Notes: generated from the letters alone by a model not told the origin. 63,394 nt of DNA from Patescibacteria group bacterium (GCA_018896215.1 JAHINB010000017.1:1-63394); one strand, 5' to 3'. Positions 14,547 through 57,833 are shown, counted from the stretch's first letter. Made by a program: numbers and translations.

Positions 14547-14558
14547 GTATTCATATTA

Positions 14559-14942: not shown

Positions 14943-14987
14943 GAATTAGTCCAATTGAACTAATTGGTCTAATTAGACAAATTCCAA
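14943..14987. repeat. repeat family E copy
   Basis: gaattagtccaattgaactaattggtctaattagacaaatt. Confidence 0.7.
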
Positions 14988-17291: not shown

Positions 17292-17321
17292 TTGACCTAT
17301 AGTGACGAAAAGTGTTATAAT
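17292..17321 (+). promoter_or_regulatory. sigma70-like promoter of GC-rich cassette 1
   Basis: TTGACC (17292-17297), 18-nt spacer, TGtTATAAT (17316-17321, extended -10). Confidence 0.55.
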
Positions 17322-17426
17322 ACAGTAACTCGTGCGCGACCGTCGCGCAACCCCGCCCACGCAGGCGGGTCAAACCCCCTACCTCACAATTCTTCCCTGC
17401 CTGTGGCAGGGAGAAAGGAAAACCTC

Positions 17427-18063
17427 ATGAAGAAGGTTAAGGTTTTTGTTGTGCTAGCGGTCGTCCTGGCCGCCCTTCCGTTGTTCGTCGTCGTCCCCCA
17501 CCCTGCCGAGGCGCAGGTGACCTGCCCTGCAGGAACCTATTATCAGGTAGACCCTGGATCGCCCCAGGGGTTCTACTGTGTGGTGGGGGAACCCCCCGCC
17601 ATCAACCTCTGCGCAAGAATGGGAATGGGTTCCGTCGTACGGCAACGGGTACGACCCCAAAAAGCTCCCCCTCCTGGGTCTTTTCGACAAGATGGTCGGA
17701 GATCCAATTGGGGCACTCTCCCGGATCCAACCGGGTCAACCAATCGAAGAGTGGCCTCAATACCAAAAAGATGCTATCGGCGGTGCAATCGCCGACACAG
17801 TGACCATCGGAATTTTCAGTTGGGTGGACTGGCTCTCGGGTCTTCTCGCAGAAGACTCAGACTCACCGCCCACCTCAGCTCCAGCTCCTCCGGATCCGGA
17901 ACCGACTGTCGCTCCTTCCGTCTCTTCCACGACCGCAGGAAGCCCCTGCGGGTATCAGTGGAAGAGGAGAGGGGACCTAGTCTGCTCCGCCTGGTGCTTA
18001 GCACTAGACGGACAACGAACATGGGCGTTGGACGAAGGGGGATTCGCGAAGTGCGCTAACTAG
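17427..18063 (+). pseudogene. GC-rich secreted ORFan, split by a +1 frameshift at a G5/C6 tract (or phase-variable, or a sequencing error)
   Basis: The signal peptide MKKVKVFVVLAVVLAALPLFVVVPHPAEA-Q is in frame 17427. After 17585-17597 that frame turns into Arg-rich nonsense. Frame 17578-18063 reads as a plausible protein (WEWVPSYGNGYDPKKLPLLGLFDKMVGDPIG...). Confidence 0.6.
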
Positions 18064-22038: not shown

Positions 22039-22097
22039 GGTTGTCGTTCTCTCTCCTCACATTATGATGCGCATAAAATAACCCCCTCGTCAACAGT

Positions 22098-22140
22098 TTC
22101 TCCCTTCTATTCCCTCTGCTCCCTCTAATCCCTCTAATTT
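22098..22140. repeat. CT-rich repeat family F (CCCTCTAATCCCTC-type)
   Basis: Related copies at 34205-34260, 43265-43318, 23470-23565 and 54985-55020. Confidence 0.6.
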
Positions 22141-22142
22141 AT

Positions 22143-22218
22143 TGGTGCCACCGGTGGGAGTTGAACCCACAACCTCCTCCTTAGGACGGAGTTGCTCTAT
22201 CCATTGAGCTACGGTGAC
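22143..22218 (-). tRNA. tRNA-Arg (anticodon CCU), CCA encoded
   Basis: Manual cloverleaf: acceptor GTCACCG/CGGTGGC, D arm GCTC/GAGC, anticodon loop gTCCTAa, T arm GTGGG-TTCAACT-CCCAC, 3' ACCA. Confidence 0.85.
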
Positions 22219-30043: not shown

Positions 30044-30079
30044 ATCTTCCACTCATTTTTCCCCCAATGTCACTATAGG

Positions 30080-30108
30080 TTGCATTTTGGCAAATTTTGT
30101 TCTATAAT
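30080..30108 (+). promoter_or_regulatory. sigma70-like promoter of GC-rich cassette 2
   Basis: TTGCAT, 17 nt, TATAAT. The -10 plus initial transcribed sequence (TATAATCTCCCTAGTTTG) is nearly repeated at 48491-48510, upstream of cassette 6. Confidence 0.55.
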
Positions 30109-30177
30109 CTCCCTAGTTTGATTCGAATGCCCGCGGGTGTCGTGTGGCAAAAAACCAACAACAAAAGGAGCTCAACA

Positions 30178-30654
30178 ATGGGACGCCAAATTCTAATCGG
30201 AATACTCACCGTCTTGATTTTCATCAATGTGATGCTGACCGGAGCGTTGGTGGATGCAAAGTTCCTTCACCTCTACCACGCATGCTTACCAGAAGACTGC
30301 GACTGCAGTGCACACCCGCCCATGTCCCCGACCGAGCTTGCATCGAGACCGACCCCGCAGCCGCCGCGGGTGATTGTATCTGCAGACCAAATGTACGCCA
30401 TCACAGAATACACGACGAGCAGGTTCGAGGGCGGCTACTTCTACCTGTCGGGAATCCGCGAGACGGTCCCAACGGAGTGGAGGTTTGGGCAGGACTGGTG
30501 TGACTGGTCCCAGATCAGCCCGCACCTCCACAAGGCAAAAGGTTTGACCGTGGAGGTTGAGGTGAAGAGTACCAGTCTGGTTTTCCGTGTCCCAGACACA
30601 GATAAACCAAACTGGGAACCCTACATCTGGACCTGCTACCCACCCGCCCGCTGA
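30178..30654 (+). CDS. GC-rich secreted/membrane-anchored ORFan
   Basis: AAGGAG-N7-ATG. N-terminal hydrophobic segment MGRQILIGILTVLIFINVMLTGALVDA. GC3-rich codons unlike neighbouring genes. Confidence 0.6.
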   Translation: MGRQILIGILTVLIFINVMLTGALVDAKFLHLYHACLPEDCDCSAHPPMSPTELASRPTPQPPRVIVSADQMYAITEYTTSRFEGGYFYLSGIRETVPTEWRFGQDWCDWSQISPHLHKAKGLTVEVEVKSTSLVFRVPDTDKPNWEPYIWTCYPPAR

Positions 30655-30670
30655 ACCCCCGCCTAACCCG

Positions 30671-30747
30671 AAACCGCCGAGCGGTGTGTTAAAGAAAGTG
30701 ATCTAAAAAATCACGATCCCAAACACATCTCCCGGCGGTTTAGTTTT
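30671..30747 (+). terminator. long hairpin terminator of cassette 2
   Basis: AAACCGCCG...CGGCGGTTT with nested GTGTGTT/AACACAT arms, then agtttt. Confidence 0.45.
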
Positions 30748-30802
30748 GCAAAAAACTCACTTTTTTGTAAATTGTACTTGACAAAAACTGCAAAAGACTT
30801 TT

Positions 30803-31975
30803 TTAGACAAAGGCGGTAAGGAATTTGTCCGCGCTTATGACTCTAACATTACCAACCATTATGTCAATTTTGGGCTGAAACACTACTTGATACAAAAAAG
30901 GAATTCGCAGTCTCGCGCCGAAATAATTCAAATGAGAAGAGGGTATTGTGTCAGAAAGCTTTGCCTCCACCGCAAACCACGGCTTATTGTCCACCGCAAC
31001 CAGAAAATCCACTTCCCGACCCTCCGCATCCCGCAGATAGTAAAGATCAGAGCGAAACCCAAAAACATCGCGCAGATAATGGACGAATTTTAATAGATGC
31101 CCCGCTACCAAGTTCTCAAACCTTGCGGACTCGTCCGAAAGAACCGACCAATCCCACAAATACAGCTTCGTCATTTTCTTCAAAGAGCGCAGCATTTTTT
31201 GCCGGAACGGGGAAAGGCGAAAATGGTAGTAAAAAAGCTCCAAAATGGCAAGATAGTTGGCAACCGTTTTGTAGGCAACTTGCAAATCCTCGCAAAGCGC
31301 GTTTACCGAAAGCAAAGACCCAACTTTCTCCGGAAGGAGGTCCGCCAAAATCTGCAAGGTGGAAACATCCCCAATATAACGCAGATCCCGAATCTCCTCC
31401 TTGATCAACCGATCCACCCGATCGCTTTGCCAGCGACGCCAAAATGTGATGTTTCTTTTCGAAAACGGTTCGGGAAACGGACCAAAGCGCGACAATCTTT
31501 GCAAAATCTTCTCCCCATCTACGAGATCAACAAAATGTAATTCCTCAAAAGGCTTTGCTCGCCCCTTAGAACCGGTAAGCTCCACCAGGCTAAAAGGGTG
31601 CAAAACATAATACCGGCATCGACCAGAAAGCGAATCTCCGCCTCGGCGATACAAATCCATTTTGGCGCTTCCCGTAACCAAAAAACTGTGTCGTTCCCCC
31701 AGTCTGTCAAACAGACCTTTAATATAGGTTTTCCAGTGCCGAAACTTGTGAAGTTCGTCAAAAATCAGCAGTTCCGCCTTGGCAGGAAACCTGTAGCCTA
31801 CAATATCTTTGCGATCCGGCTGGTAATCCCAGTTAAAATAGGAAAAATTTGGATATGCAAATTTCCCAACCTGCTTTGACAAAGTAGTCTTTCCAACCTG
31901 CCTTGGTCCTCCAAGAAGCACGATTTTTTCCTTAACATCTTGGATTATTTCCTGCAAAAGATAGCGATTCTTCAT
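30803..31975 (-). CDS. AAA+ ATPase with DUF4143-type C-terminal domain (COG1373-like)
   Basis: Walker A GPRQVGKTTL, Walker B LLIFDELH. Same 390-aa size as the ATPase at 61049-62221. Confidence 0.75.
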   Translation of the reverse strand: MKNRYLLQEIIQDVKEKIVLLGGPRQVGKTTLSKQVGKFAYPNFSYFNWDYQPDRKDIVGYRFPAKAELLIFDELHKFRHWKTYIKGLFDRLGERHSFLVTGSAKMDLYRRGGDSLSGRCRYYVLHPFSLVELTGSKGRAKPFEELHFVDLVDGEKILQRLSRFGPFPEPFSKRNITFWRRWQSDRVDRLIKEEIRDLRYIGDVSTLQILADLLPEKVGSLLSVNALCEDLQVAYKTVANYLAILELFYYHFRLSPFRQKMLRSLKKMTKLYLWDWSVLSDESARFENLVAGHLLKFVHYLRDVFGFRSDLYYLRDAEGREVDFLVAVDNKPWFAVEAKLSDTIPSSHLNYFGARLRIPFLYQVVFQPKIDIMVGNVRVISADKFLTAFV

Positions 31976-32041
31976 ACTAACTTTTTATACCAGAAGCAAA
32001 AAAGTTTGTCAACTTTTTGGAAAGCGGTAAAAATTATCTGG

Positions 32042-32127
32042 TGGTGCCGAAAGAGGGAGTCGAACCCTCACCCCATCACTGGGACACGATTTTGAGTCGT
32101 GCGCGTCTGCCATTTCGCCACTTCGGC
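32042..32127 (-). tRNA. tRNA-Leu (anticodon CAA), CCA encoded
   Basis: Acceptor GCCGAAG/TTTCGGC, anticodon loop CTCAAAA, long variable arm, T arm GAGGG-TTCGACT-CCCTC. Confidence 0.88.
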
Positions 32128-32231
32128 TTGTATTTATAATGTATTGGTCGAAGTCATACTGAATACAATTTTGCGGATTTTGAGCCCCTGCGAAAACGGG
32201 ACCGCAAAATTTAGACGGTGTGACGAGACCT

Positions 32232-34204: not shown

Positions 34205-34260
34205 ATTAGAGGGTTTCATTCTGTTCCTTCTGCTCCATCTCAACCCTCTAATCCCTCATT
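34205..34260. repeat. repeat family F copy (ATTAGAGGG ... CCCTCTAAT inverted arms)
   Basis: Shares ..CTTCTGCTCC.TCT...CCCTCTAATCCCTC with 22098-22140. Confidence 0.6.
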
Positions 34261-34261
34261 T

Positions 34262-35632
34262 ATGCAAAAGCCCTTACCAATTATAAAAGACGCTTACGAC
34301 TATGCCAAATCTACCCGGGGCAACATTACTCACGCCAAAGAAACCGTAAAAGTTTTAACCCAAAACGAAATAACTGACCCGCCAACCATTGTGACTGCCA
34401 TTTTGCACGACTGCCTGTATTACGGCAAAGGAAAACTTTCCGAGATTAAAAGTTTTTTTGGAAACGATGTGGCAAACATGGTTGTGGCTCTATCTAGGAT
34501 TGAAAGAATTCACCTAACTCCAAACGACCCTAAAAATCACGAAAAAATTCGTCGTGTTATTATGTCGCTATCTTCTAATTATAGAGTCTTTTTGATCAAA
34601 ATCTCTTGCCGGTTAGCAAGACTTCGAGCGTGTGGAAAATCCAAAACCCCCGAGTGTTTGTTGGTAGCAAAACAAGCCTTGTCGATTGATGCCCCACTTG
34701 CCAAGGCATCATCGTTAAAAAACATTGCGGGAGAGTTAAACGATTTGGGATTTAAAATCTCCGAACCCTTAAAGTATAAACAATTGAAAAATCTTATTCT
34801 TGATAAGGAAGTTTTTTTAAAAGAACGACTTTTGGGCGTGAAGAACAAATTAGAGTTGCTAATGGAACAAGCAAGCGTTTCGGCAGCCATTTCTTTTCGT
34901 AAAAAATCCCCCTACTCCACCCATCTTAAAATTTTAAAATACCTAGAAAAACGCAAGATTAAAGAGTACGGCGTTGAGAAAATCCATGATCTTATAGGTT
35001 TAAGAATAATTGTCAGAACCGAAAAAGATTGCTACAAAGCGCTGGATGCAGTACAAAAAAATTGGGGGGTGGAAATTAGCGAATTTGATGACTACATTGC
35101 CCGCCCCAAACCCAACGGCTACAAATCTATTCATACAATTATAAAAGTGGGACAGGCGATGTATTGCGAAATTCAAATTGTAACCACAAAAATGGAAGAA
35201 TTTAATAATTTTGGAGGGGCATCTCACTTAGGTTACAAAAATCCCAATTGGGTTAAGACATATATAAACAAGTTTGTTTCTGACGAAATTAAAAGCGGTG
35301 ATAAAACCTCCAATTTTAATCCCTTTTCCAAAACTATTTTCACCTTTACCCCAACAGGAGACATTATAGAATTGCCAGCAGGCGCAACTTGTGTTGATTT
35401 TGCCTACAAAATTCACACCGATTTAGGTAACAGGTGCGAGGGGGCATTGGTTAATGGAATAATCAAAAAACTAGAATACGAGTTGCAAAATGGTGACGAG
35501 GTAAAAATAATCCCCTCAAAAAGAAGGCCTTCTCCAATTGCCAAATGGATTGACTTTGTCAAAACCCCCGAAGCCAAAAAGCAAATTCGCCACTACAGCA
35601 ACATATTATCGGGTACTACCCGATTCGGGTAG
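34262..35632 (+). CDS. RelA/SpoT homologue (HD-like, synthetase and TGS domains), short form
   Basis: ILHD HD-like region; synthetase DLIGLRIIV...GYKSIHT; TGS IFTFTPTGDIIELPAGATCVDFAYKIHTDLG. Confidence 0.8.
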   Translation: MQKPLPIIKDAYDYAKSTRGNITHAKETVKVLTQNEITDPPTIVTAILHDCLYYGKGKLSEIKSFFGNDVANMVVALSRIERIHLTPNDPKNHEKIRRVIMSLSSNYRVFLIKISCRLARLRACGKSKTPECLLVAKQALSIDAPLAKASSLKNIAGELNDLGFKISEPLKYKQLKNLILDKEVFLKERLLGVKNKLELLMEQASVSAAISFRKKSPYSTHLKILKYLEKRKIKEYGVEKIHDLIGLRIIVRTEKDCYKALDAVQKNWGVEISEFDDYIARPKPNGYKSIHTIIKVGQAMYCEIQIVTTKMEEFNNFGGASHLGYKNPNWVKTYINKFVSDEIKSGDKTSNFNPFSKTIFTFTPTGDIIELPAGATCVDFAYKIHTDLGNRCEGALVNGIIKKLEYELQNGDEVKIIPSKRRPSPIAKWIDFVKTPEAKKQIRHYSNILSGTTRFG

Positions 35633-36391
35633 TACCCGAATTTTTCCTATTCTAACAACAAATTATCGATGTAGGGTTTTTTGATGTCACTGTCGCCATC
35701 CAAGGGATCTATGTAAGACTCCACAAAGTCTTTATATCTTGCAACAGTCATATCGCCCAACACCTCGTCCCAACAAAGCCAACCTTCTTTTATATTTTTA
35801 TTTATGTAGTAGTAGCTAGAAAATCTATAATCTTTAAGGGAATCTTTGCTCACCATTTCCAAAGGATTTAAATGGATATAGCGAGCAAGATGTAAAAACT
35901 GCTCCCCTGTTGTAATCGGGACTGCTTTATAAATCGCTTGGTAAAGTTTACCTACACGATCATTTTTTTCATTAAAATAATTAGTGTAGTTAGTACAAAT
36001 CTTTTTTGTAAGATCTGTTAATCCCTCCTTTTTCTTTAATTTGACGAGCAGGTGGTAATGGTTAGGCATAAGACAAAACGCTAAAAGTGAGATTTTATCG
36101 TAAGAATAATTCGGGGTTACAAATATTGACTGTTTCGTCTTAGGATCTTTGCGTTCTAAAACAAAACCAGGCTCTAAATAACGCCTTAAATTATTAATAA
36201 AAACATGGTAATCCTCCGAATCTTGAAATATTACTCTTCGTTCTACCCCTCGGTTATAAACATGGTAATACGCACCTTCCGCAAAAACTTTATAGATGTT
36301 CCTTGATGGCATAGTTACAACATTAATATCCTATTTAGCAGAAGTCAATACCTAAAGCAAATATTCGGGTAGTACCCGAATCGGGTACTAC
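35608..36391. mobile_element. REPtron-like unit: RAYT gene bracketed by inverted family-B double palindromes
   Basis: Left flank 35608-35645 is CGGGTACTACCCG-attc-GGGTAGTACCCG. Right flank 36364-36391 is CGGGTAGTACCCG-aat-CGGGTACTACC, the same sequence flipped. Confidence 0.7.
35647..36312 (-). CDS. REP-associated tyrosine transposase (RAYT; IS200/IS605 Y1 HUH family)
   Basis: YHVYNRG, LMPNHYHLLV (HUH) and the YIHLNP region; about 220 aa. Confidence 0.8.
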   Translation of the reverse strand: MPSRNIYKVFAEGAYYHVYNRGVERRVIFQDSEDYHVFINNLRRYLEPGFVLERKDPKTKQSIFVTPNYSYDKISLLAFCLMPNHYHLLVKLKKKEGLTDLTKKICTNYTNYFNEKNDRVGKLYQAIYKAVPITTGEQFLHLARYIHLNPLEMVSKDSLKDYRFSSYYYINKNIKEGWLCWDEVLGDMTVARYKDFVESYIDPLDGDSDIKKPYIDNLLLE

Positions 36392-36452
36392 CTTATAGCT
36401 AAAGCGCTAAATAGCCCTTTTATGCAAAACATTGTTGTAGTAAACTTACATT

Positions 36453-37760
36453 ATGGATCAAAGTACAACCCAAACCTTAAAAGGCTTTAGGGATTTTTTA
36501 CCCGAAAAAATGCGGGTGCGCAACTGCGTCCAAAAAATTCTGCAGGAGTCGTTTGAGGAATTTGGTTTTGAGCCTTTGCAAACGCCCTCTTTAGAATATG
36601 CCGAAACCTTGTTAAAAAAATACTCCGCTGAAAACGACAAGGAGACTTATATTTTTGAAGATTTGGGGAAAAGAAAGGTCGGTTTAATCTACGACTTGAC
36701 TGTCCCCGTCGCAAGAGTGTTATCACAAGTTGACAATAATATTGTGATGCCGTTTAAACGCTATCAAATTCAACGCTGTTACCGCGCCGAAAAACCCCAA
36801 AGGGGTAGATTTCGCGAATTTGTCCAGTGTGATATTGATATTTTTGGAGTGACTTCGGAACTTGCCGATGCCGAAGTCTTGGCTTGCGGTTATAAAGCCA
36901 CCCAAAAACTAGGATTTACTAATTTTTCTTTTTTGATTAATGATCGTAATACACTTTTTGAGATTTTGCAAAAAGCCGGTGTTTCCGAACCCAATAAACA
37001 ACTTTCGGTTCTGCGCTCGCTAGATAAGTTAGAAAAGATCGGGCAAAAGGCGGTCTCCCGAGAGTTGGCATCAAAAAGATTCCCCACAGCCCAAACAGCC
37101 CTAATTTTTTCCCTTATCTCCCAGAGCAAACCCTCGGAAAACTTGATTAACATTACAAACTATGCGGTAGCTTTAGGCGTACCTAAAGAAAAACTGATCT
37201 TCTCCCCTACTCTTTCGCGCGGAGCGGATTATTATACTGGCATGGTGGTCGAAGGAGTGGTTACTGAACCCAAAATTGGTTCAATTTTGGGAGGCGGCAG
37301 ATACGATAAATTAATTGAATCTTTTGGTGGCAAACCAACCCCGGCAACGGGAATTAGTTTTGGTTTTGAACGCGTTTGCGAGGTGGTGGAAGAACTCGAT
37401 CTTTTAAAAAATGTCATTAATGCTTATCCCGCCAAGGTCTTGATTTGCCCCATTCTTAACAATCCTCAAGATCTCTTACCCGCCACAATGCGCGAAGCGC
37501 TTTGGGTGGGCCAAACTCTTAGACAAAATAACATCCCAACAGATATATTTTTAAAACCCCAAGACTCGTTGGCTAAACAAATAAAATACGCCAATGCTAA
37601 AAATATTCCTTATATTATGGTAATTGGATCAGATGAGGTGGAAAAAAATGTGGTATCGTTAAAAAATTTAGCCACTCGCGAGCAACAGTCGTTACCTTTA
37701 AAACAAGCTATTAAATTCATAAATCTCCCCGCCTGCCACACCAAAAGTTGTCATTGCTGA
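36453..37760 (+). CDS. hisS: histidyl-tRNA synthetase
   Basis: LKGFRDFLP, QRCYRAEKPQRGRFREF (motif 2), GGGRYD and a C-terminal anticodon-binding domain. Confidence 0.93.
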   Translation: MDQSTTQTLKGFRDFLPEKMRVRNCVQKILQESFEEFGFEPLQTPSLEYAETLLKKYSAENDKETYIFEDLGKRKVGLIYDLTVPVARVLSQVDNNIVMPFKRYQIQRCYRAEKPQRGRFREFVQCDIDIFGVTSELADAEVLACGYKATQKLGFTNFSFLINDRNTLFEILQKAGVSEPNKQLSVLRSLDKLEKIGQKAVSRELASKRFPTAQTALIFSLISQSKPSENLINITNYAVALGVPKEKLIFSPTLSRGADYYTGMVVEGVVTEPKIGSILGGGRYDKLIESFGGKPTPATGISFGFERVCEVVEELDLLKNVINAYPAKVLICPILNNPQDLLPATMREALWVGQTLRQNNIPTDIFLKPQDSLAKQIKYANAKNIPYIMVIGSDEVEKNVVSLKNLATREQQSLPLKQAIKFINLPACHTKSCHC

Positions 37761-37817
37761 CTTCTCGTGATGCAACAAGCGGGGCGAAACGGTCAACTAC
37801 CCACGAGTCACGAAGAA

Positions 37818-38036
37818 TCAGCGTCTGTCAAGAAGAAAGATGTTGACCCTACATTTGTCATCAAACTTCCCCATCTTTCCCAGGACATCGGCTCTGATTT
37901 GGTGAATGAGACCCCTCTGATCCGTGTCAGAGGAGCTGTTTGAATAGCGGACGCCAGTGACCGCCCGCCACCATCCTACACGAATGCTTCCAACGCGCCG
38001 TTCAGCAAACCCCGCCCAAACCATTTTAGATGTCAT
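37818..38036 (-). CDS. GC-rich small ORFan (72 aa), second gene of cassette 3
   Basis: GGAGG-N6-ATG. The ATG lies 1 nt after the stop of the upstream gene (taa g atg). Confidence 0.4.
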   Translation of the reverse strand: MTSKMVWAGFAERRVGSIRVGWWRAVTGVRYSNSSSDTDQRGLIHQIRADVLGKMGKFDDKCRVNIFLLDRR

Positions 38037-38037
38037 C

Positions 38038-38322
38038 TTACCCCTCCTGTCCACGATGTGGAAACAGTTCCACCTTAGCCTCTGCGGAAAATCCAAGAGG
38101 CTCCGTCTCGGTTCCCGTGAGAACAACTCGCTGAACCCAACCGCCTCCGAAAACGAATCTTGCTAAGCCCCTCCTTGCGAGGTCGTACACAGCAGACATG
38201 ACCTCGCTTTTCCGGAGACCAGTCCTTACGCAGAGGCTTCCCAAATCTACCGCTGATCCTCCCTTAGGGAGTTTCCTCCAAACAATCTCCGATCGCATTT
38301 TGTGAACCCTCTTTTTTGCCAC
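38038..38322 (-). CDS. GC-rich small protein with winged-helix-like segment, first gene of cassette 3
   Basis: AAGGAGGG-N6-GTG. The segment DLGSLCVRTGLRKSEVMSAVYDLARRGLARFV resembles a wHTH recognition unit. Confidence 0.45.
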   Translation of the reverse strand: MAKKRVHKMRSEIVWRKLPKGGSAVDLGSLCVRTGLRKSEVMSAVYDLARRGLARFVFGGGWVQRVVLTGTETEPLGFSAEAKVELFPHRGQEG

Positions 38323-38428
38323 GGTACACCCTCCTTTTTCGCGATGGTTGGTTGGATTGACAACAACTTACTATAGGGATTTTGCTATAAAAGAAGAGAA
38401 AATGCAAGAGGAAGAACGGCAAATGCAC

Positions 38429-38466
38429 GATTAGGGATAATCCCAAATTTGGGATTATCCCTATTC
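38429..38466. repeat. family C palindrome (TAGGGATAATCCC-aaattt-GGGATTATCCCTA)
   Basis: Same arms as 12760-12796. Confidence 0.8.
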
Positions 38467-38529
38467 TAATGGGGTGAGACCCTAAAACAGCATTGACACC
38501 ACAAAGATACCATGATATTAATCATATCA

Positions 38530-38814
38530 ATGAATAATACAAACCAAAGAGACAAAATAATTACCACCAATGTTAGATTCCCAGAGTCACAATGGTTACA
38601 AGTAAAAGTAGAGGCCGCCGAAATGGGCTTTAGCATCAACCAATACATTAACCGTATTATCGAACAAAGCTCTATGCAAAAACGATTGGCTTTAACCATT
38701 AAAGATAACAAATCCCCCGCTGTTTCATTCTGGAACTTACCAAAAATTGCCAAAAAATGGTCTAAACGAAAAGTATTAGAGATGTCAGAAGAAGATAAGA
38801 TAATTTATGCCTAA
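38530..38814 (+). CDS. ribbon-helix-helix-type antitoxin (VapB-like)
   Basis: TNVRFPESQWLQVKVEAAEMGFSINQYINRIIEQ. Overlaps the start of the PIN gene by 8 nt. Confidence 0.65.
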   Translation: MNNTNQRDKIITTNVRFPESQWLQVKVEAAEMGFSINQYINRIIEQSSMQKRLALTIKDNKSPAVSFWNLPKIAKKWSKRKVLEMSEEDKIIYA

Positions 38815-39229
38815 CAAATCAAAGGAAACCCTCTTTATAGATACAAGCTTTTTTAAAGCAATGTTAGATTCGTCCGACGACTTTCACAACAAAGCAGTAA
38901 AAACATTGAGTACAATCGAAAAAAACGGCAACCCACTTGTTACAACAAATTACATTTTAGATGAGGCATTTACATTAATTAGACAAAGGATGGGAGTTGG
39001 GGCATTAAAAATATTTAGAGAGGCGCTATTACAAAACGAATGGAGATTAAAAGTAGCCCGAACAACAATTCAAGATGAAGAAAATGCTTGGGATTATATG
39101 CTTAAAGACTGGAGTAATTTATCTTTTACCGATTGTGTATCTTTTGCAGTAATGAAAAGGCTAAGTATACAACACGCCTGCACATTTGATTCTCACTTTT
39201 CCAGCGCGGGCTTTTCCACGGTTCCCTAA
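38807..39229 (+). CDS. vapC: PIN-domain toxin VapC
   Basis: LFIDTS (Asp1), ILDEA, SFTDC and FDSHF acidic residues at canonical PIN spacing. Confidence 0.85.
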   Translation: MPNKSKETLFIDTSFFKAMLDSSDDFHNKAVKTLSTIEKNGNPLVTTNYILDEAFTLIRQRMGVGALKIFREALLQNEWRLKVARTTIQDEENAWDYMLKDWSNLSFTDCVSFAVMKRLSIQHACTFDSHFSSAGFSTVP

Positions 39230-39237
39230 AAAATAAA

Positions 39238-39306
39238 ACCACCTTGCAGGTCTTTAAACGCCAGTGTTTAAACGCCAGTGTTTAAAGATTATTCCTGCAA
39301 GGTGGT
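39238..39306. repeat. 13-bp-stem hairpin (ACCACCTTGCAGG / CCTGCAAGGTGGT) whose loop holds a 14-nt tandem repeat (TTTAAACGCCAGTG x2.5)
   Basis: Read directly. Lies between vapC and tRNA-Thr. Confidence 0.7.
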
Positions 39307-39309
39307 CAA

Positions 39310-39379
39310 AGCGGATGGCGGGACTCGAACCCACAACCCAGCGATACCATCGCTGTGCTCTACATTGAGCTACATCCAC
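39310..39379 (-). tRNA. tRNA-Thr (anticodon GGU)
   Basis: Acceptor GTGGATG/CATCCGC (one G-U pair), anticodon arm CAGCG-ATGGTAT-CGCTG, T arm GTGGG-TTCGAGT-CCCGC. No CCA encoded. Confidence 0.85.
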
Positions 39380-39394
39380 AACGAAAAAAACGAT

Positions 39395-39830
39395 TTCTGG
39401 TTCCCCGGGTGGTCTCGTAAGTGCCCCTGTGGCACTCCTTACACACCATCTCCCTGTCTAGCACTAAACATGACAGGGCGTTTTCCGTTAAACTACGGGG
39501 GTGATGTGATTACCTAGCTAGCCGCGCTCGCAGACGCCTCCCCTAGAGGCCGAGAGCGGACACTTTCCGCAGTTTCCGTTTCTCCCTTCGGGACAACCCT
39601 GCCCCAGAGGGAGTGCGCAGTGAAGCTCGAGGTAGCGCACCTCGCTACCACGCCGTTGCTTTTTGGCCCTCGCCCGAGGGCGGCGCGGCGGCGTCGTCTG
39701 CCGACGCACCGGCGGTCTACGGGTCGGTTGATCTAACTCCTGCAGGGCACGCTCGTGACGGACGAGGTTCTTACACATTTGGGGCTCCTTCCCTACGAGG
39801 AAACAAATTACGGGAAAAGCTCCCGCAAGC
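39395..39830 (-). other. GC-rich, hairpin-dense segment (cassette 4): either a structured ncRNA with RNase-P-catalytic-domain-like motifs or a small Arg-rich ORF (39518-39778)
   Basis: Many perfect 5-7 bp GC hairpins. On the minus strand: GGAAAGUGUCC (39568-39558) pairs with GGGCACUU (39426-39419); GCACUCC (39616-39610) pairs with GGAGUGC (39438-39432); a hairpin followed by AGAUG lies at 39478-39447. Alternatively, AAGGAG-N6-ATG precedes the 86-aa ORF. Confidence 0.3.
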
Positions 39831-39885
39831 TCCGTAAAAAACCGGAAAAAATGAACCTACTAAGCAGATTCACTCTTTCCGATTC

Positions 39886-39945
39886 ATTAGGGACGATCCC
39901 TAATACAATTCCGATCAAATGCCTCTTAAGGGATCGTCCCTAAAA
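39886..39945. repeat. family C palindrome (TTAGGGACGATCCCTAA ... TTAAGGGATCGTCCCTAA)
   Basis: Arms separated by about 25 nt. Solo arm pair at 42303-42323. Confidence 0.75.
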
Positions 39946-40142
39946 AGGCAAAACACGCCAGGGGGCGCATTCATCGTTATAGCCATAGTCTCTTGTAAGT
40001 CTCTTCCATCTCGTAAATGGCTATTGAGGGGTATTCTACCCCACCTTTTAACACTATGTCAACCTTTTTTAAAGAAAAAACTTAAAGCGCCTTGTTGGTC
40101 GGAAATGCATCCCGTAACCAAAAAGGCGCTTCTTCTAAAAAA

Positions 40143-40829
40143 CTAGAACGGCTCGCCCGAGATTGGTCTCTTCGGGGTAGAGACCAGCGAGATGAATGTC
40201 TTCGACATTGGCACTTGGCAGGTAAAGGTTACCTTCCAGACATAAAAAACTGATTGAGCGCTCTCCCGATAAGAGTAAGCGAACACGCCTACTCTCCTAC
40301 CCTGAACCCAACCCACCACCACTGGGGGAATCTCTGCCTCCCCATACCCCCAGGCAGTACCCACATAGTCCCCATTGACCACCCGCACCCGACCGATTTC
40401 AGCCCACCCGGAGGATGGGACTTCCACGGTCAGAACGAAGTCGACAAAATCTCCTGCGAAATCGGGACTGGAAGGCTTGGGAAGAGCCAGCCCCACCAAC
40501 TTGCAGGAAATAGCGTCCTTGGGAACCCATCCGTAGGATCCCACATAGCCACTCTTCTTCCCTGGATCAGACCTGTCCAAAGTTCCGAACAGATCTGGGT
40601 AGTTGGGGTCCATGGCCTTCCAGGGCGCCTGCATCACCGCCGCGGGGTCGCGCAGCTCCACTACTCGGACCGCCACCGAATCCGCTCCCGCGGGAGCGAC
40701 AACCCCCAGCTCCTCTACCCCCAAAACTTCCGGGAGTGGGGAGATTGAAATTTCCTGCGCCCGAGCGGGTGCAGGAACGAGAAACGACGACACTACCAGT
40801 ACCAGCAAAACTACGATTTTCGCTTTCAC
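40143..40829 (-). CDS. GC-rich secreted ORFan (cassette 5)
   Basis: AAGGAG-N7-GTG at 40829. Signal peptide VKAKIVVLLVLVVSSFLVPAPARA-QE. GC3-rich codons. Confidence 0.6.
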   Translation of the reverse strand: MKAKIVVLLVLVVSSFLVPAPARAQEISISPLPEVLGVEELGVVAPAGADSVAVRVVELRDPAAVMQAPWKAMDPNYPDLFGTLDRSDPGKKSGYVGSYGWVPKDAISCKLVGLALPKPSSPDFAGDFVDFVLTVEVPSSGWAEIGRVRVVNGDYVGTAWGYGEAEIPPVVVGWVQGRRVGVFAYSYRESAQSVFYVWKVTFTCQVPMSKTFISLVSTPKRPISGEPF

Positions 40830-40902
40830 TGTTTTCTCTCCTTTGCGAGAATTGTGAAATGGGATTAAATTGCACACCCCGTTGGGTGGCAAACGAACCC
40901 TC

Positions 40903-40931
40903 ATTTTACAACAAAAACACCCCCCAGTCAA
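40903..40931 (-). promoter_or_regulatory. sigma70-like promoter of cassette 5
   Basis: Minus strand: TTGACT (40931-40926), 17 nt, TAAAAT (40908-40903). Preceded by AACTATAGGA. Confidence 0.5.
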
Positions 40932-40998
40932 TCCTATAGTTAGAAACTCCCTAAATTTTGCTCTTGTTTAAGACCTCCTTTCCTCTTAAACTAATCTC

Positions 40999-42030
40999 AT
41001 GACCAACCGCAAAAAATCCCTCATCGCCCTCGCCTTGGTAACCCTGATCTGGGGAGGCGCCACCCCAGTGATCAAACTGGGTTTAAACAGCCTTCCCACC
41101 TTTACTTTTTTATTCATCAGACTTGCGATCTCCTCAATTGCGGTGCTTCCAATTCTGCTTGTTAAACTCAAGAAAACCCCTCTCAAACTCCCGCAAATTC
41201 CGGCGCTTTTTTTTATCCCGTTTTTTGGTCAAACAATATCTTTGGGACTGGTTTTTTTGGCGCTTGATCGCACTTCGGCGCTCGACGGAGCGATTCTGGG
41301 ATCAATGAGTCCTATTATGATATCGATTGCGGGAGTAATTTTGTTAAATGAGGTTATTACGAAAAGAGAAAGAGTGGGAACAGCAATTGCCCTTGTGGGA
41401 TCGTTGATAATTATTTTTCAGCCTTGGGCAGAATCAGGATTTTCTTTGCATGACGGCTTTAGAGAAAAACTTTTGGGAAATGTTTTAATGGTAGGCTATC
41501 TTCTTGCCAACACCGCCTATACTATCGCCACTAAAAGATATTTTAAAAAATACCCTAAAACCGATCCGTTTATTAAAATTTCGCTGGGATTTATTGTTGG
41601 AGCCATCACCTTCTTTCCCCTTTCGATGCTCGAGTTGTCTTCTTTGACCACAGTCTCCGGGATCGCGGCGCTGACTTTTCCCCCGTTGACCGCTATACTT
41701 TCCCTGCTTTACATGGCAATTTTTTCTGGTGTTATCGCCTATTTCTTATACGAGATGGCATTAAAATATATTGAGGCTTCAGAAGCCAGCGTCTTTACCT
41801 ACCTGCAACCGGTTATTGCCATCCCCGCTTCTTTTATCTTGCTGGGTGAAGTTCCGACAGGAGTGTTTATGATGGGCGGGGCGGTCATAGCAATGGGAGT
41901 ATATTTAGCAGAAACCAAAAAATTCCCCTACTTCCCCGCTTCTTTTAAAAGGTCTTTCAAAGACTTAACTCCACTCATCACTTGCTTTTTTTCTATTTTT
42001 TTAACCATTTTAGCTTTTCGCTCTTCTTGA
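40999..42030 (+). CDS. DMT-superfamily transporter (two EamA domains)
   Basis: [11 protein letters not shown] plus 10 TM helices. The last ~100 nt overlap rpmE on the opposite strand. Confidence 0.8.
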
Positions 42031-42239: not shown

Positions 42240-42302
42240 ATATCAAATATTGTCGCGGGAGATTGTACCAATTTTATCCTTCTAAAACAAGTTCTTTTTT
42301 TC

Positions 42303-42323
42303 ATAAGGGACGATCCCTAATGG
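42303..42323. repeat. family C solo palindrome (AAGGGACGATCCCTAA)
   Basis: Identical arm to 39886-39945. Confidence 0.6.
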
Positions 42324-43080: not shown

Positions 43081-44016
43081 ATGGATTACCTTGAGATTGA
43101 AAAAAATAGAATAGACTTAAAAATACTCGAAGCGAAAAAACTTTTGCTTGATCCTGCTTTGGCAGAACTTGCCAAGGAGGAGATTGCAAGGTTAGAACAA
43201 GAGAAAACGGAATTAGAAAAAGGGGGTAGTCCGCCTTTGGCGGACTACCCCAACGATTCTGCACCTTCTTCCCTCTCCAATCCCTCTAATTCCCCTTATC
43301 CCTCTACTCCCTCTAGTTCGTGTATTTTGGAAATAAGGGCAGGAACCGGGGGCGACGAGGCCAGCATTTTTGCCAGCGAGCTTTTTAGAATGTATCAAAG
43401 GTACGCCATAAACCAAGGTTGGAAGATAAATTTGCTAGGAGAAACCAGCGCTAAGATAACAGGCGAGGGGTGTTTTGACAAATTACAGTTTGAGTCGGGG
43501 GTCCATCGTGTCCAACGGGTACCACAGACAGAATCCAGTGGCAGAATCCATACTTCCACGATAACTGTGGCAGTTTTGCCCGTAGTCACTCCAAAGGAAG
43601 TGGAAATTAAGGATGCTGACTTGATATTTGACTCGTTTCATTCCGGCGGTCACGGCGGGCAGAATGTTAACAAGGTCGAAACCGCCGTTCGGATTACTCA
43701 CAAACCCACGGGAATTGTGGTTTCCTGCCAAGAGGAACGCTTTCAACTCAAAAATCGCGAAAAGGCTCTGGAAATGCTTCGCTCTAAACTTTATCAAATG
43801 ATGCAGGAACAACACCAAACCTCTGTCAACAACCTACGAGCAACGCAAGTGGGAACTGGTGACAGAACCGAAAAAATAAGAACCTACAACTTTCCGCAAA
43901 ATAGAATCACCGATCATCGAGCCGGCTTAAGCTGGCACAATATTAAGGGGGTAATGGAGGGGGAGATTGAGAGGGTGTTGAGTGATCTTGAGGAGAAATT
44001 GTTAACCAAAGAATAA
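43081..44016 (+). CDS. prfA: peptide chain release factor 1 (short N-domain carrying repeat insertions)
   Basis: PQT tripeptide in RVQRVPQTESSGRIHTS (RF1 PxT), and GGQ in SGGHGGQNVNKVETAV. Confidence 0.9.
   Translation: MDYLEIEKNRIDLKILEAKKLLLDPALAELAKEEIARLEQEKTELEKGGSPPLADYPNDSAPSSLSNPSNSPYPSTPSSSCILEIRAGTGGDEASIFASELFRMYQRYAINQGWKINLLGETSAKITGEGCFDKLQFESGVHRVQRVPQTESSGRIHTSTITVAVLPVVTPKEVEIKDADLIFDSFHSGGHGGQNVNKVETAVRITHKPTGIVVSCQEERFQLKNREKALEMLRSKLYQMMQEQHQTSVNNLRATQVGTGDRTEKIRTYNFPQNRITDHRAGLSWHNIKGVMEGEIERVLSDLEEKLLTKE
43220..43318. repeat. family B variant (GGGGTAGTCCGCC-tttg-GCGGACTACCCC) followed by family F tract, both in frame in prfA
   Basis: Translated as KGGSPPLADYPNDSAPSSLSNPSNSPYPSTPSSS. 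Confidence 0.75.
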
Positions 44017-46358: not shown

Positions 46359-47357
46359 TCATATAACTTTGGTTTCCAAAACTCTCTTCAGCTGTTCTGT
46401 CTCTTTTAGGGTATAGGATTTGGACATAAAACCCGTCAAAGGACGCGGGCGGGCGTCAATTACCAAGCCATAGGATCCCCCACCTACTTCAAATGTTAAG
46501 CGTTTTTTGCCTTTTATTTTTAAAATAACTTTTACCAGATCTTTTTCGGCAATGGGAACAAAAAACACCCCAGCATTTTTAAAATCAAAAGACTGGTTTT
46601 TTCCCAACCCGAAGTCAATCTCCCCCTCTGTGGCGTTTGGAACAACCAGAGCTGTTACTGTTGTATTAAAAGGATTCTTAAGCAAAAAAGCCTCCGCCAG
46701 CGACTTGTCGTAAAAAGAAAGGGTGGCAAGGCAAGATAAGGAATCTTTTTCGTCAAAAGCAATCCTCCAAACTCCCGGCAGATTAAAGGAGTTTAAAACA
46801 GCCAGCATCAGTCGCGAAACCCCCCCGTAAAAAAACGGATAGCTCCCCGAAATAATAATTTTATCAGCGCCAGAGATTACTTTTAAATAAGCGTTATTTA
46901 TAGCAAACTTTATTTTAGAAAAGCTTACCGCATTTTCTAAAGATATATCATAGGGATTGCAAGGGGTTTTTGGTCCGTACAAAAGCCTGTTTTGCCAAGC
47001 GTTTTCCGCCTGTTGCGAGTTGGGTTCCAAAAAAAAGTAATTAAAATAGTCGGTTTCTACTATTTTAAGCTCCTGGGTTCCTTCTGGCGTATAAATTCTT
47101 TTATCGCCAATCCAGATAAAAGGATTAGGAATCGCGGTTTTGTTTAACGCTTGTTCAAATGTTGCTGGAGCGGATATTTCGGGATTAGAAGACACCACAT
47201 ACTTTTGAGTAGCCTTACCAACCAAATCGTCAACTAAAATTTTTTGCGAGAAGATTGGCTGGGGAATTGGCGTATAGCTTGTAGTAAACGAAAGAGTTTT
47301 CTCGTCAACAAAAAAATTGGCGGACCAAAAAAGTCCCATGTGGCAGGCAAGAATCAT
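46359..47357 (-). CDS. hypothetical protein
   Basis: 332-aa ORF with host-like codon usage, tightly linked to the downstream KOW protein. No motif recognised. Confidence 0.5.
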   Translation of the reverse strand: MILACHMGLFWSANFFVDEKTLSFTTSYTPIPQPIFSQKILVDDLVGKATQKYVVSSNPEISAPATFEQALNKTAIPNPFIWIGDKRIYTPEGTQELKIVETDYFNYFFLEPNSQQAENAWQNRLLYGPKTPCNPYDISLENAVSFSKIKFAINNAYLKVISGADKIIISGSYPFFYGGVSRLMLAVLNSFNLPGVWRIAFDEKDSLSCLATLSFYDKSLAEAFLLKNPFNTTVTALVVPNATEGEIDFGLGKNQSFDFKNAGVFFVPIAEKDLVKVILKIKGKKRLTFEVGGGSYGLVIDARPRPLTGFMSKSYTLKETEQLKRVLETKVI

Positions 47358-51035: not shown

Positions 51036-52418
51036 CTACTTGTCCTGTACTTTGACACCTAACGCCTCTAACTGTTTTCTTAAACTATCCGCTAGAGCAT
51101 AGTTTTTGCTGGCTCTTGCGCGATCCCGCTGGGCAATTAGTTTTTTTGCTTCTTGCGGAATCTCTTTGACAAAGTCATCCTGATCCAGATTTAATCCCAA
51201 AACTTTGTCCCATTCTAAAAGCTTTTGTACAGCCTGCGACTGGTAACCGTTCTTTTTGGACTCGTTGACGAGCTCCCAAACTACCGCCATAACTTTAGGC
51301 ATGTTTAGATCGTCAGCTAAAGCATTAGCAAATTTTTTCTCGAAAAAATTTGCCAAATTAGACCAATTAGACAAATTAGTCAAATTCGGCCAATTCCCAG
51401 AAACAAAACCATACAATTTTTCTAACGCTTTACTACTCGCATCAAGTGCCTCCCAGGAAAAAGCGATAGTTTGCCTCCAATGGGAGCTGTAAGTATATAA
51501 TTTGTAAGCCAAGGGGTCATAACCTTTATCAATTAGAGTTTGCAAAGTCAAAAAATTCCCCGCGGATTTTGCCATTTTTTCTTCTTTTTCGGCATTTAAA
51601 AAACCCGCGTGGAGCCAATAATTTGCCATTTTGCGACCAGTTGCCACTTCGGTTTGGGCAATTTCGTTAGGATGGTGAATTTCCTTATGATCAATTGCGC
51701 CAGTGTGAATATCAAATGGGGCACCCAAATGCTTAAGCGAAATCGCCGAACACTCAATGTGCCACCCCGGAAAACCAATTCCCCACGGCGAATCCCATTC
51801 CATAGCGCGCTTTTTTCCAGAGATATTAAACTTCCACAAAGCAAAGTCGCGAGGATTCTTTCTTTCGGGATTGACATCTACACGAGCCCCTTCGATGATT
51901 CCAGAGTCTCGCAAAGACGACATCTGACCATACTCGGGAAATTTTTTAGTATCGAAGTAAATTCCATCACTTGTTTTGTAGGTTAGACCTTTTTCTTCTA
52001 ATTGAGAGATGAGACTAATTTGTTCAGGAACGGTATCGGTGGCTTTTTCCCACACAGTTGGGGGAAGCAAGTTGAGCCGTGCCATATCGCTCTTAAACGC
52101 CTTGAGGTAGAATTCAGATAATTCCCATGCGGTCATATTTTTTTCGGCAGAGGCTTTCTCTACTTTGTCCATCCCCATGTCACCATCGCCAGTAAGATGT
52201 CCCACATCGGTTACATTCATTACTCGTTTTACTTGGTAGCCAAAATAGGTTAATGCTCGAACCAGTAGGTCGTTAAAAATATAGGTACGGAGATTTCCAA
52301 TATGGGCATAGTTATAAACCGTCGGACCACAGGTATACAACCCTACATGGTTGGGTACAATTGAAACGAATTCCTCTTTTTTTCCCGTAAGCGAGTTGTA
52401 AAGTTGCAATTTATTCAT
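51036..52418 (-). CDS. cysS: cysteinyl-tRNA synthetase
   Basis: YTCGPTVYNYAHIGNLR (HIGH region) and KMAKSAGN (KMSKS). Confidence 0.95.
   Translation of the reverse strand: MNKLQLYNSLTGKKEEFVSIVPNHVGLYTCGPTVYNYAHIGNLRTYIFNDLLVRALTYFGYQVKRVMNVTDVGHLTGDGDMGMDKVEKASAEKNMTAWELSEFYLKAFKSDMARLNLLPPTVWEKATDTVPEQISLISQLEEKGLTYKTSDGIYFDTKKFPEYGQMSSLRDSGIIEGARVDVNPERKNPRDFALWKFNISGKKRAMEWDSPWGIGFPGWHIECSAISLKHLGAPFDIHTGAIDHKEIHHPNEIAQTEVATGRKMANYWLHAGFLNAEKEEKMAKSAGNFLTLQTLIDKGYDPLAYKLYTYSSHWRQTIAFSWEALDASSKALEKLYGFVSGNWPNLTNLSNWSNLANFFEKKFANALADDLNMPKVMAVVWELVNESKKNGYQSQAVQKLLEWDKVLGLNLDQDDFVKEIPQEAKKLIAQRDRARASKNYALADSLRKQLEALGVKVQDK
51349..51397. repeat. family E repeat in frame in cysS
   Basis: ccaaattagaccaattagacaaattagtcaaattcggccaatt is translated as NWPNLTNLSNWSNLAN. 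Confidence 0.75.
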
Positions 52419-57209: not shown

Positions 57210-57239
57210 TTTCTTATATTTTCCTAAACTTCTTCTTAT

Positions 57240-57296
57240 CAAATTAGACTAATTAGTCAAATTAGTCAAATTAGACCAATTCTTTAATTAGACCGA
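57240..57296. repeat. family E repeat, intergenic, at the boundary of the accessory array
   Basis: aaattagactaattagtcaaattagtcaaattagaccaattc. Confidence 0.7.
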
Positions 57297-57833
57297 TTTG
57301 TTTTTGTAATCTAAACGCTTTTTAAACAGGTTTTCTCTAAATCCCCCATTTTTTACAAATTCCTCTTCTAACGACCTATAAAAATTATCTAGTAAATAGG
57401 TTTCTTTGTAGATCAAACAAACCATTATGTTTGCAGAGTCTTCTGGTTTTTCCAAAGACAAATTGCACCAATTGGTCAAATTGGACAAATTAGTCGAATT
57501 TGCAACTTCTTCTTTAAAAGAACGAATTTTTAAAACACGGGGGTCGTTTTTATCCCAAAGGGTAAGTTTGTTAATACGCAAAAAATCTTTGTAATCTTCT
57601 AGCAATTCACCAAAACTGGCGCGAGCAACGCTAACAAGTTTTAATTTGCTTTCACAACTTTTCTCTAAAACACCTTCCACAATGTTCTGTTTGCAACTCC
57701 TTGCTGCTTGAACCATTTGTTCTACAGTTCTTTTAAATGCAAAGGTTTTTAAATATTTTTGGCAAAACGCATCGTTGGCATCGTAAATTGTTGTTGCTAG
57801 CCTGTAAACTAACAAATTTTCGTATTTTTGCAT
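57288..57833 (-). CDS. four-helix-bundle protein (23S-IVS/S23p-like family) with C-terminal suffix domain
   Basis: YENLLVYRLA..., QMVQAARSCKQNIVEG and VARASFGELLEDYKDFL follow the four-helix-bundle family pattern. Confidence 0.65.
   Translation of the reverse strand: MQKYENLLVYRLATTIYDANDAFCQKYLKTFAFKRTVEQMVQAARSCKQNIVEGVLEKSCESKLKLVSVARASFGELLEDYKDFLRINKLTLWDKNDPRVLKIRSFKEEVANSTNLSNLTNWCNLSLEKPEDSANIMVCLIYKETYLLDNFYRSLEEEFVKNGGFRENLFKKRLDYKNKSV
57459..57503. repeat. family E repeat in frame in the four-helix-bundle gene
   Basis: Translated as NSTNLSNLTNWCNL. Confidence 0.7.

Follow-up and report, generated by a model that had tools for sequence, protein, structure and literature searches.

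The hisS–eamA junction of a WWE3-like bacterium: a likely hotspot for small, separately gained genes

Genes and features of the interval

The DNA analysed here (the window) is a stretch of 63,394 nucleotides from a Patescibacteria group bacterium (GCA_018896215.1 JAHINB010000017.1:1-63394). The interval of interest (37761-40998) lies between hisS and a gene for an EamA transporter (eamA). It contains small GC-rich cassettes, a VapBC toxin–antitoxin module, a tRNA-Thr gene and palindromic repeats. A first-pass annotation, made from the sequence alone, had described the interval as an accessory island centred on tRNA-Thr, and all the features that it listed are present in the window where it had placed them. 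The host appears from its sequence to be a WWE3-like bacterium of the candidate phyla radiation (CPR), of the small groundwater symbiont type. The window sequence is that of contig JAKLRK010000004.1 of GCA_022012835.1. Near-identical strains are found in NCBI (GCA_018817985.1), ENA (ERZ928008, ERZ27247128), JGI (3300014656) and the Logan runs ERR2191545, SRR26275510, SRR27458548 and SRR35107410. The features of the interval and its flanks are as follows (ORF, open reading frame; aa, amino acids; L012, a JGI contig described below).

36453-37760, plus strand: hisS, the left core flank (Pfam tRNA-synt_His, 8e-38)
37818-38036, minus strand: putative 72-aa ORF, gene 2 of cassette 3; AGGAGG 6 nt upstream, inside the end of gene 1
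38038-38322, minus strand: 94-aa winged-helix-like ORFan, gene 1 of cassette 3; GC 0.54, GTG start, AAGGAG 8 nt upstream
38428-38468, no strand assigned: family C palindrome, similar to repetitive extragenic palindromic (REP) elements; TAGGGATAATCCC / GGGATTATCCCTA
38530-38814, plus strand: vapB-like ribbon-helix-helix (RHH) antitoxin, 94 aa; GC 0.34; HicB E=0.002, CopG_antitoxin E=0.06
38807-39229, plus strand: vapC, PIN-domain toxin (Pfam PIN, 1.3e-12, residues 10-135)
39238-39306, minus strand: intrinsic terminator of tRNA-Thr, a long hairpin and then UUUUAUUUUUU; dG -39 kcal/mol, z=-7.7
39310-39379, minus strand: tRNA-Thr(GGT) (ARAGORN; Rfam 56.5 bits)
39518-39778, minus strand: cassette 4, an 86-aa Arg/Pro/Cys-rich ORFan; GC 0.66, AAGGAG-6-ATG, no signal peptide
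39841-39885, minus strand: terminator-like hairpin of ~22 bp with a U-run, upstream of cassette 4; z=-6.2 for 39779-39885
39887-39943, no strand assigned: family C inverted pair, TTAGGGACGATCCCT ... AGGGATCGTCCCTAA
40033-40062, minus strand: promoter-like TTGACA-18-TAGAAT (11/12 matches) in the AT-rich spacer between cassettes 5 and 4
40078-40131, minus strand: terminator hairpin of cassette 5; z=-4.6; 100% identical in L012, a conserved right-hand homology arm
40143-40829, minus strand: cassette 5, a 228-aa ORFan; Sec signal peptide (...APARA|QE), GC 0.58, AAGGAG-8-GTG
40903-40931, minus strand: promoter-like TTGACT-17-TAAAAT of cassette 5, kept in the L012 allele
40999-42030, plus strand: eamA, the right core flank (Pfam EamA, 4e-38)

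By HisS, the nearest relative is a candidate division WWE3 metagenome-assembled genome (MAG; L003) with 55% aa identity. The next 80 relatives compared are Microgenomates/WWE3-type CPR genomes, with HisS identities of 42-51%. In most of these 80 loci only 2-150 bp separate hisS from the next conserved gene, which is eamA in 35 of them and otherwise rpmE. The ancestral order is hisS followed directly by eamA and rpmE. The gap between hisS and eamA measures 3.24 kb in the window and 0.99 kb in L003, its content is not the same in the two, and rpmE is inverted in the window. Since the gap of the relatives is mostly 2-150 bp, the 3.24 kb form a lineage-specific insertion zone. The interval is accessory against a conserved order, as the comparison of synteny proposed with the first-pass annotation was meant to establish.

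GC content varies strongly along the interval. It is 0.53-0.55 at 37800-38300, 0.33-0.37 at 38400-39200, up to 0.66 at 39500-39800, about 0.42 at 39900-40100 and 0.55-0.65 at 40200-40800; the repeated AT-rich/GC-rich flips noted within 3.2 kb are thus swings from 0.33 to 0.66. Two results had been named beforehand as contrary to an island, the same gene order and composition in related genomes and a flat GC profile; neither is the case here. Six GC-rich patches occur in the 63-kb window, three of them within the hisS–eamA interval.

~17.3-18.1, 30.1-30.7, 37.8-38.3, 39.5-39.8, 40.1-40.9 and 48.6-49.4 kb: GC-rich patches

The six patches have a GC content of 0.52-0.66 and a third-position GC content (GC3) of 0.59-0.70, as compared to 0.33-0.46 and 0.30-0.50 for core genes. 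GC is raised at all three codon positions. In the products, Gly, Ala, Arg and Pro (GARP residues; 25-45% of the GC-rich proteins versus 16-25% of core proteins) are abundant, whereas Lys, Asn, Ile, Phe and Tyr are scarce. Four of them carry an N-terminal signal or anchor sequence.

Abrupt changes in composition, and contigs that break at cassette edges, would also arise if the GC-rich segments were assembly or binning chimeras from a GC-richer organism. The same AT-rich/GC-rich junctions recur in independent assemblies from NCBI (two MAGs), ENA, Logan (four runs) and JGI. The junctions are therefore real, and the probability of a chimera is close to nil. In the deposited NCBI annotation, three of the four GC-rich genes of the interval are missed or mis-stranded. 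It omits the minus-strand 86-aa gene and both ORFs of cassette 3, which the Logan, ENA and JGI calls include.

The GC-rich genes also differ from the core in their translation signals. A Shine–Dalgarno (SD) sequence, AAGGAG or AGGAGG 6-8 nt 5' of the start, precedes 7/7 GC-rich ORFs versus 1/18 annotated core starts (Fisher p ~2e-5), which bears out the shared signal previously attributed to these ORFs. A strict -10 box lies 5-13 nt before 3/18 core starts as compared to 4.6% of all ATGs (p=0.047). This suggests that some core mRNAs are leaderless or near-leaderless; the p-value of 0.047 is marginal, and the scarcity of SD sequences is the robust part. TATAAT-like boxes 7-11 nt before ATG are seen at several core genes, for example at 29409, 33609, 38530, 43081 and 46359-47357.

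Strain alleles of the GC-rich genes

The 86-aa gene of cassette 4 has tRNA-Thr 138 nt downstream. The strain contig L011 equals the window over cassette 3, VapBC and the tRNA, and 126 columns differ in a sharp block at 39534-39836. In the 86-aa frame, the substitutions between the two alleles fall 20/14/41 by codon position. The indels (6 and 3 nt) are in frame, all six Cys are conserved, and the ratio of nonsynonymous to synonymous divergence (dN/dS) is 0.15 at a dS of ~1.45. The 74-aa plus-strand ORF annotated by NCBI at 39613-39837 shows no codon periodicity (28/38/25). Cassette 4 is a real protein gene, not a hairpin element. Of its earlier description as hairpin-dense, the local hairpins stand; the cassette as a whole folds no better than shuffled sequences (z=-1.86) and is mainly the 86-aa coding sequence (CDS).

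The fold and the codon pattern also bear on the proposal that the GC-rich patches, above all cassette 4, are structured non-coding RNAs. In an AT-rich genome, RNAs of this kind are conspicuous by their high GC content, cassette 4 is directly upstream of tRNA-Thr and co-oriented with it, local hairpins exist, and the opposite-strand ORF of NCBI shows that gene calling is ambiguous here. Against this, the whole cassette does not fold better than its shuffles, and the third-position substitutions, in-frame indels, conserved Cys and low dN/dS are those of a protein. In both the window and L003, tRNAs are the only Rfam 15 matches that reach the gathering score; within 37700-41000 there is no credible match even at E<=10, and no Rfam family argues for such an RNA at E<=10 in the interval, the whole window or L003. 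RNase P, tmRNA and other structured RNAs were considered for cassettes 3 and 4 and rejected, as neither the gathering score nor E<=10 gave a match and the evidence pointed to a CDS instead. We regard non-coding RNA as a highly improbable explanation.

The 228-aa gene of cassette 5 behaves similarly. Its signal peptide and the promoter-like TTGACT-17-TAAAAT are present as first described. The protein is predicted to be secreted and mostly β. Its sole homologue in 5.8e9 proteins is P0002, encoded by the JGI contig L012 (56-61% identity). In L012 the start of eamA and the downstream terminator are 100% identical to the window, with the cassette 5 gene between them ~50-90% identical in blocks. The alleles show in-frame indels and a dN/dS of 0.22 at a dS of 1.46. 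The edge of the divergent block, 40157, is also the exact end of five contigs from four assemblies, as expected when two alleles coexist in one sample. A metagenome scan with the cassette 5 alignment recovered only the JGI contig already known. Mutagenesis by a diversity-generating retroelement was rejected as a source of the variation; there is no reverse transcriptase domain within +-10 kb, and the alleles differ along the entire gene, by indels as well as by substitutions that favour third codon positions.

The AT-rich spacer with the promoter-like site at 40033-40062 is 100% identical in L011 and L012. This site is followed (39945-40062, minus strand) first by a hairpin and a terminator-like one (39972-39951), then by the REP pair, and lastly by another terminator-like hairpin (39883-39841). 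The unit could be a small RNA or a long leader.

By these substitution patterns, purifying selection acts on both the 86-aa and the 228-aa gene, and both are functional CDSs. They occur as deeply divergent alleles in co-occurring strains between identical flanks. Alleles with a low dN/dS, in-frame indels and saturated dS, set in flanks that are 100% identical, point to replacement of whole genes by homologous recombination. A further GC-rich gene varies in the sister assembly L005, where the first 43 residues of the cassette 2 product are unchanged and the C-terminal part that follows is unrelated, though encoded by equally GC-rich DNA. When L005 (7905-8819) is compared to the window (30068-32132), the AAA_14/DUF4143 gene (30803-31975) is missing and tRNA-Leu(CAA) is inverted in L005. 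Cassette 1 (17292-18063) seems frameshifted. Its signal-peptide ORF runs into an Arg-rich tail that looks out of frame. Another frame overlaps it from 17578 and reads as if it were the real continuation; a pseudogene, a programmed frameshift or an error in the sequence may lie behind this.

Recombination is also seen in the left flank. In the anticodon-binding region of hisS (~37300-37600) the window has a block that is ~35% divergent from the sister assemblies L005, L010 and L011 and bears a 21-nt in-frame indel; elsewhere the three are >99% identical to the window. Given this identity around the block, we infer a recombination import inside a core gene.

Cassette 3 has a different history. 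The 72-aa ORF begins 1 nt past the stop of the 94-aa gene, to which it appears translationally coupled, and the two-gene unit of the first-pass annotation stands in this respect. The winged-helix assignment is the weaker part of that claim. The 94-aa protein gives MarR_2 at E=0.05 in Pfam and weak MarR-type sequence matches. Its AlphaFold2 (AF2) model (mean predicted local distance difference test score, pLDDT, 56) has a winged-helix topology, a helix-turn-helix (HTH) with a β wing; the top Foldseek matches are all winged-helix proteins, at E>=0.04 and none significant. A sequence search of the PDB found nothing for this protein. Our best guess from the model is that it is probably a small DNA-binding regulator. 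For a toxin–antitoxin pair, the other function considered, neither protein matches a toxin or antitoxin family in Pfam, PHROG or PADLOC, and the 72-aa partner is missing in L003. Gene calls for the Logan, ENA and JGI assemblies include the 72-aa ORF, which is invariant among the strains compared.

The same hisS–eamA gap of L003 contains a homologue of the 94-aa gene, 46% identical, with one frameshift, led by AAGGAGG and in a segment of GC 0.52-0.55. Cassette 3 is thus old and syntenic, since its homologue occupies the same gap of a distant relative. The L003 gap has no homologue of the 72-aa ORF, VapBC, the tRNA or cassettes 4 and 5. Besides the L003 protein, no homologue of the 94-aa protein was found in 1.8e9 or 5.8e9 proteins, and a two-sequence profile of the family recovered only L003 from GTDB genomes. 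A former contiguity of cassettes 3 and 4, by analogy with the pair of 91-aa and 94-aa ORFs in L003, was considered and dropped; the 91-aa Zn-ribbon-like ORF of L003 has no similarity to the 86-aa protein of the window. L003 has a further GC-rich patch (0.49-0.55) at its positions 4800-5400, between its copy of a transposase gene described below and hisS, where the window has only 140 bp. This patch gave no convincing ORF and no Rfam match.

tRNA-Thr, VapBC and repeats

The tRNA-Thr gene is 70 nt long, with a short D-loop. The outer stem of its terminator has 13 bp (39238-39250/39294-39306), and the loop (39253-39286) holds a 14-nt tandem repeat in 2.4 copies by TRF; L010 has 1.4 copies (10447-10466). 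Both the tRNA and the 13-bp-stem hairpin with a tandem repeat in its loop are therefore as first noted. Within 8 kb of hisS, tRNA-Thr occurs in none of 82 related loci, and tRNA-Leu(CAA) is kept nearby in 51/82; L003 has no tRNA-Thr between hisS and eamA. Since it is missing in 82 relatives, tRNA-Thr belongs to the inserted material and is not a resident target. Probes of 22 and 15 nt (<=3 mismatches) found no duplicate of the tRNA 3' end beyond chance. A repeat scan of 37600-41100 gave only a 14/19 match to the tRNA, on the wrong, 5' side. The partial 3' duplications that would mark attachment (att) sites are thus absent from the region searched. The anticodon arm and T arm, exact and degenerate with the variable loop left free, had 0 matches in 185,579 GTDB species (one genome each) and so point to neither a donor nor a native context of the tRNA. 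No integrase or recombinase Pfam domain is found in the genes called within +-10 kb, in agreement with the earlier remark that no integrase is present.

The proposal of an island centred on, or targeted to, tRNA-Thr does not survive these results, with 0/82 loci carrying the gene near hisS and no duplication of its 3' end. Nor is there a single island. The parts differ in age; the 94-aa gene is common to L003, and cassettes 4 and 5 are exchanged among near-identical strains. The interval resembles integrase-type tRNA islands in having a tRNA within accessory DNA of atypical composition and a toxin–antitoxin module. It differs from them in that it has no integrase and no att direct repeats, and in that its tRNA is not resident at the ancestral site; the model of an integrase-type tRNA island fails three of four defining features. 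The composition of the window is a GC-rich/AT-rich mosaic, whereas tRNA-associated integrase islands are uniform. A decayed island, inserted at tRNA-Thr with the integrase and att sites lost later, could account for the combination of a tRNA, atypical DNA and a toxin–antitoxin module, which is common in islands. Against it, no relative has the tRNA at this locus, so that it cannot have been the resident target; the best repeat of the tRNA 3' end is a 14/19 match on the wrong side; and the parts differ in composition and age. With the integrase or recombinase domain also lacking within +-10 kb, we consider a decayed island improbable.

The VapBC module was recognised correctly. VapC has the PIN domain, and its start overlaps the stop of the upstream RHH/HicB-like ORF by 8 nt; this ORF, whose RHH-type matches are weak, also matches an Arc-like repressor PHROG (0.004). 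The vapB-like start is of the leaderless type (TTGACA-N17-TATTAA-N7-ATG). The acidic residues of VapC, read from the translation, are D12, E53, D109 and D128. Copies of VapC with >=90% identity occur in several Patescibacteria MAGs. The gene order, a small RHH-type antitoxin gene that overlaps the downstream gene of a PIN toxin with four conserved acidic residues, is that of type II VapBC systems. The module of the window is AT-richer than the core genome, and judged from the sequence nothing notable differs from type II VapBC.

REP-like palindromes separate the units of the interval. The family C motif has 13 matches in the window versus 0.44 expected, so that this family, first proposed from inspection, is well founded. 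Further copies lie at 12755-12795 and 42300-42321, and contig L002 ends inside the palindrome at 38428-38468. The window also has at least three further families of palindromic repeats, at scattered positions. A transposase gene of the REP-associated tyrosine transposase (RAYT) type is found just upstream of hisS.

35647-36312, minus strand: RAYT-type Y1 transposase (IS200-like; Pfam Y1_Tnp, 2.5e-8)

It is flanked by inverted REPs of the GGGTAGTACCC family at 35607-35648 and 36356-36397, which are 86% complementary. L003 has a 70%-identical RAYT orthologue in the same position. The arrangement is that of known REP/RAYT systems, with short imperfect palindromes, single or as inverted pairs, in intergenic DNA, several families, and a Y1_Tnp gene between inverted REPs. 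It differs in that the family C sequence of the window is unlike the family that flanks the RAYT. Because the sequences differ, mobilisation of family C by this RAYT is a step that we only infer. Like VapBC and the tRNA terminator, the REP elements are ordinary components.

Arrays with a 9-nt period are distinct from the REP palindromes. Intergenic arrays lie at 14539-14601, 14930-14983, 51333-51395, 57219-57290 and 57447-57500, and further arrays at 22094-22143, 34208-34257 and 43255-43313. The units are CCAATTAGN/CAAATTAGN in one family and CCCTCTAAT-like in another.

Origin and meaning of the locus

We consider it likely, with some reserve, that the hisS–eamA junction is a small flexible-genome hotspot that has had several separate gains, and not a single island delivered by an integrase. 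The inserted material that the lineage carries is of four kinds: an old GC-rich operon (the 94-aa winged-helix-like gene and the 72-aa ORF), an AT-rich VapBC module, tRNA-Thr with its own terminator downstream of the GC-rich 86-aa gene, and cassette 5, which encodes the predicted secreted 228-aa protein, is GC-rich and has a promoter, a leader and an SD of its own. The first arrival of each unit would be an 'additive' gain. The 86-aa and 228-aa genes would then have been exchanged as whole units by homologous recombination through their conserved flanks, a 'replacement' mode. The high GC at all codon positions, the GARP-rich products and the SD-led starts suggest that a gene pool of different composition supplied the GC-rich genes. 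Those whose products are secreted probably function at the cell surface or where the cell meets a host or phage, a setting that favours variation. VapBC may help to retain the region.

Database searches bear on where such a pool might be. Pfam, PHROGs and PADLOC assigned no family to any GC-rich ORF, the sole weak match being the MarR-type HTH of the 94-aa protein. In 5.8e9 clustered and 1.8e9 representative proteins, homologues of the 228-aa, 94-aa and 291-aa proteins are only same-species clusters and one 56% allele. Phage and plasmid collections gave no match, and IMG/VR held nothing for the 228-aa and 94-aa proteins. Two IMG/VR matches of the 86-aa protein were discarded as spurious; they fall on an out-of-frame antisense stretch in a 677-aa gene of a viral contig of 64% GC.

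Several results weigh against this interpretation. The protein databases hold no donor or homologue beyond the species cluster for any GC-rich ORF, so that composition is the sole argument for a foreign origin. The C-terminal segment of hisS has the same mosaic divergence as the cassettes, and recombination is therefore not special to them. Both alleles of cassettes 4, 5 and 2 keep nearly the same high GC3 (0.70/0.66, 0.64/0.61 and 0.70/0.70 at dS ~1.45) despite saturated synonymous divergence, which fits long-term maintenance of GC at least as well as recent import and amelioration. Either the alleles diverged in a GC-rich pool, or a process such as biased gene conversion may keep their GC. 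The AF2 model of the 228-aa protein is unusable (pLDDT 35), and the comparison is of two or three strain alleles.

Much of this would be explained if the GC-rich genes were long-resident native genes with an actively maintained GC content, through GC-biased gene conversion or selection on mRNA or protein, at a site that is a recombination hotspot and not a sink for transfer. The alleles with persistent GC3, the lack of an external donor in very large databases and the direct evidence for recombination at the cassette loci are all in keeping with it. So is the homologue in L003, which is also GC-rich and in the same gap at only 55% HisS identity. However, the recombinant block of hisS shows no GC enrichment. 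GC is raised at all codon positions and in amino acid usage, which would need a very long-acting bias, and gene conversion does not explain SD-led initiation. Cassette 3, the oldest, has the lowest GC3; its 94-aa gene, common with L003, has 0.52 and the strain-variable cassettes 0.64-0.70, as amelioration would predict. On balance we think native, GC-maintained genes unlikely, though less so than the other alternatives.

Flexible genomic islands of additive and replacement types have been defined for Alteromonas (PMC4898812). They hold variable content at an equivalent position between core genes, and those of the replacement type encode exposed surface structures (PMC4898812). The hotspot at the hisS–eamA junction has variable content between core genes and divergent versions in near-identical flanks. 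It shares with the Alteromonas islands the equivalent position, the stepwise addition of unrelated cassettes, at least two units in highly divergent versions between identical flanks, one of them with a product that is predicted to be secreted and may be exposed, and a signal of recombination in a neighbouring core gene (hisS here). There are also differences. The units here are single genes of 0.3-0.8 kb and ORFans, whereas the Alteromonas islands are multi-gene clusters for glycosylation or polysaccharides. The alleles here are recognisably homologous (60-72% aa), whereas the replacement versions of Alteromonas are unrelated. The tRNA-repeat hallmark of additive islands is absent, and the cassettes are GC-richer than the host and SD-led. 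By analogy, the locus comes nearest to a small flexible genomic island of additive and replacement behaviour, here acting on single ORFans in a CPR genome.

CPR genomes are tiny, and their genes for contact with host or phage are mostly uncharacterised ORFans. Speculatively, the GC-rich, SD-led, strain-exchanged ORFans might form a distinct accessory pool that encodes a variable repertoire for the cell surface or host interaction, with a fixed N-terminal anchor and an exchangeable C-terminal domain in one member. Such a pool might be kept compositionally separate from the AT-rich, largely SD-less core by GC-biased conversion or by an unsampled GC-rich partner (a host or mobile element); we put this forward as a tentative and rather doubtful extension. 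The locus would be a case of gain without an integrase, in which small units are added at a core junction, with later replacement by way of homologous flanks. Three traits may serve as a signature with which a variable, possibly surface-exposed repertoire could be sought in relatives: a GC content raised at every codon position, a strong SD where most core genes of the genome have none, and contigs that break at the edges of genes. The same signature could be used to weigh GC-biased gene conversion against foreign supply.

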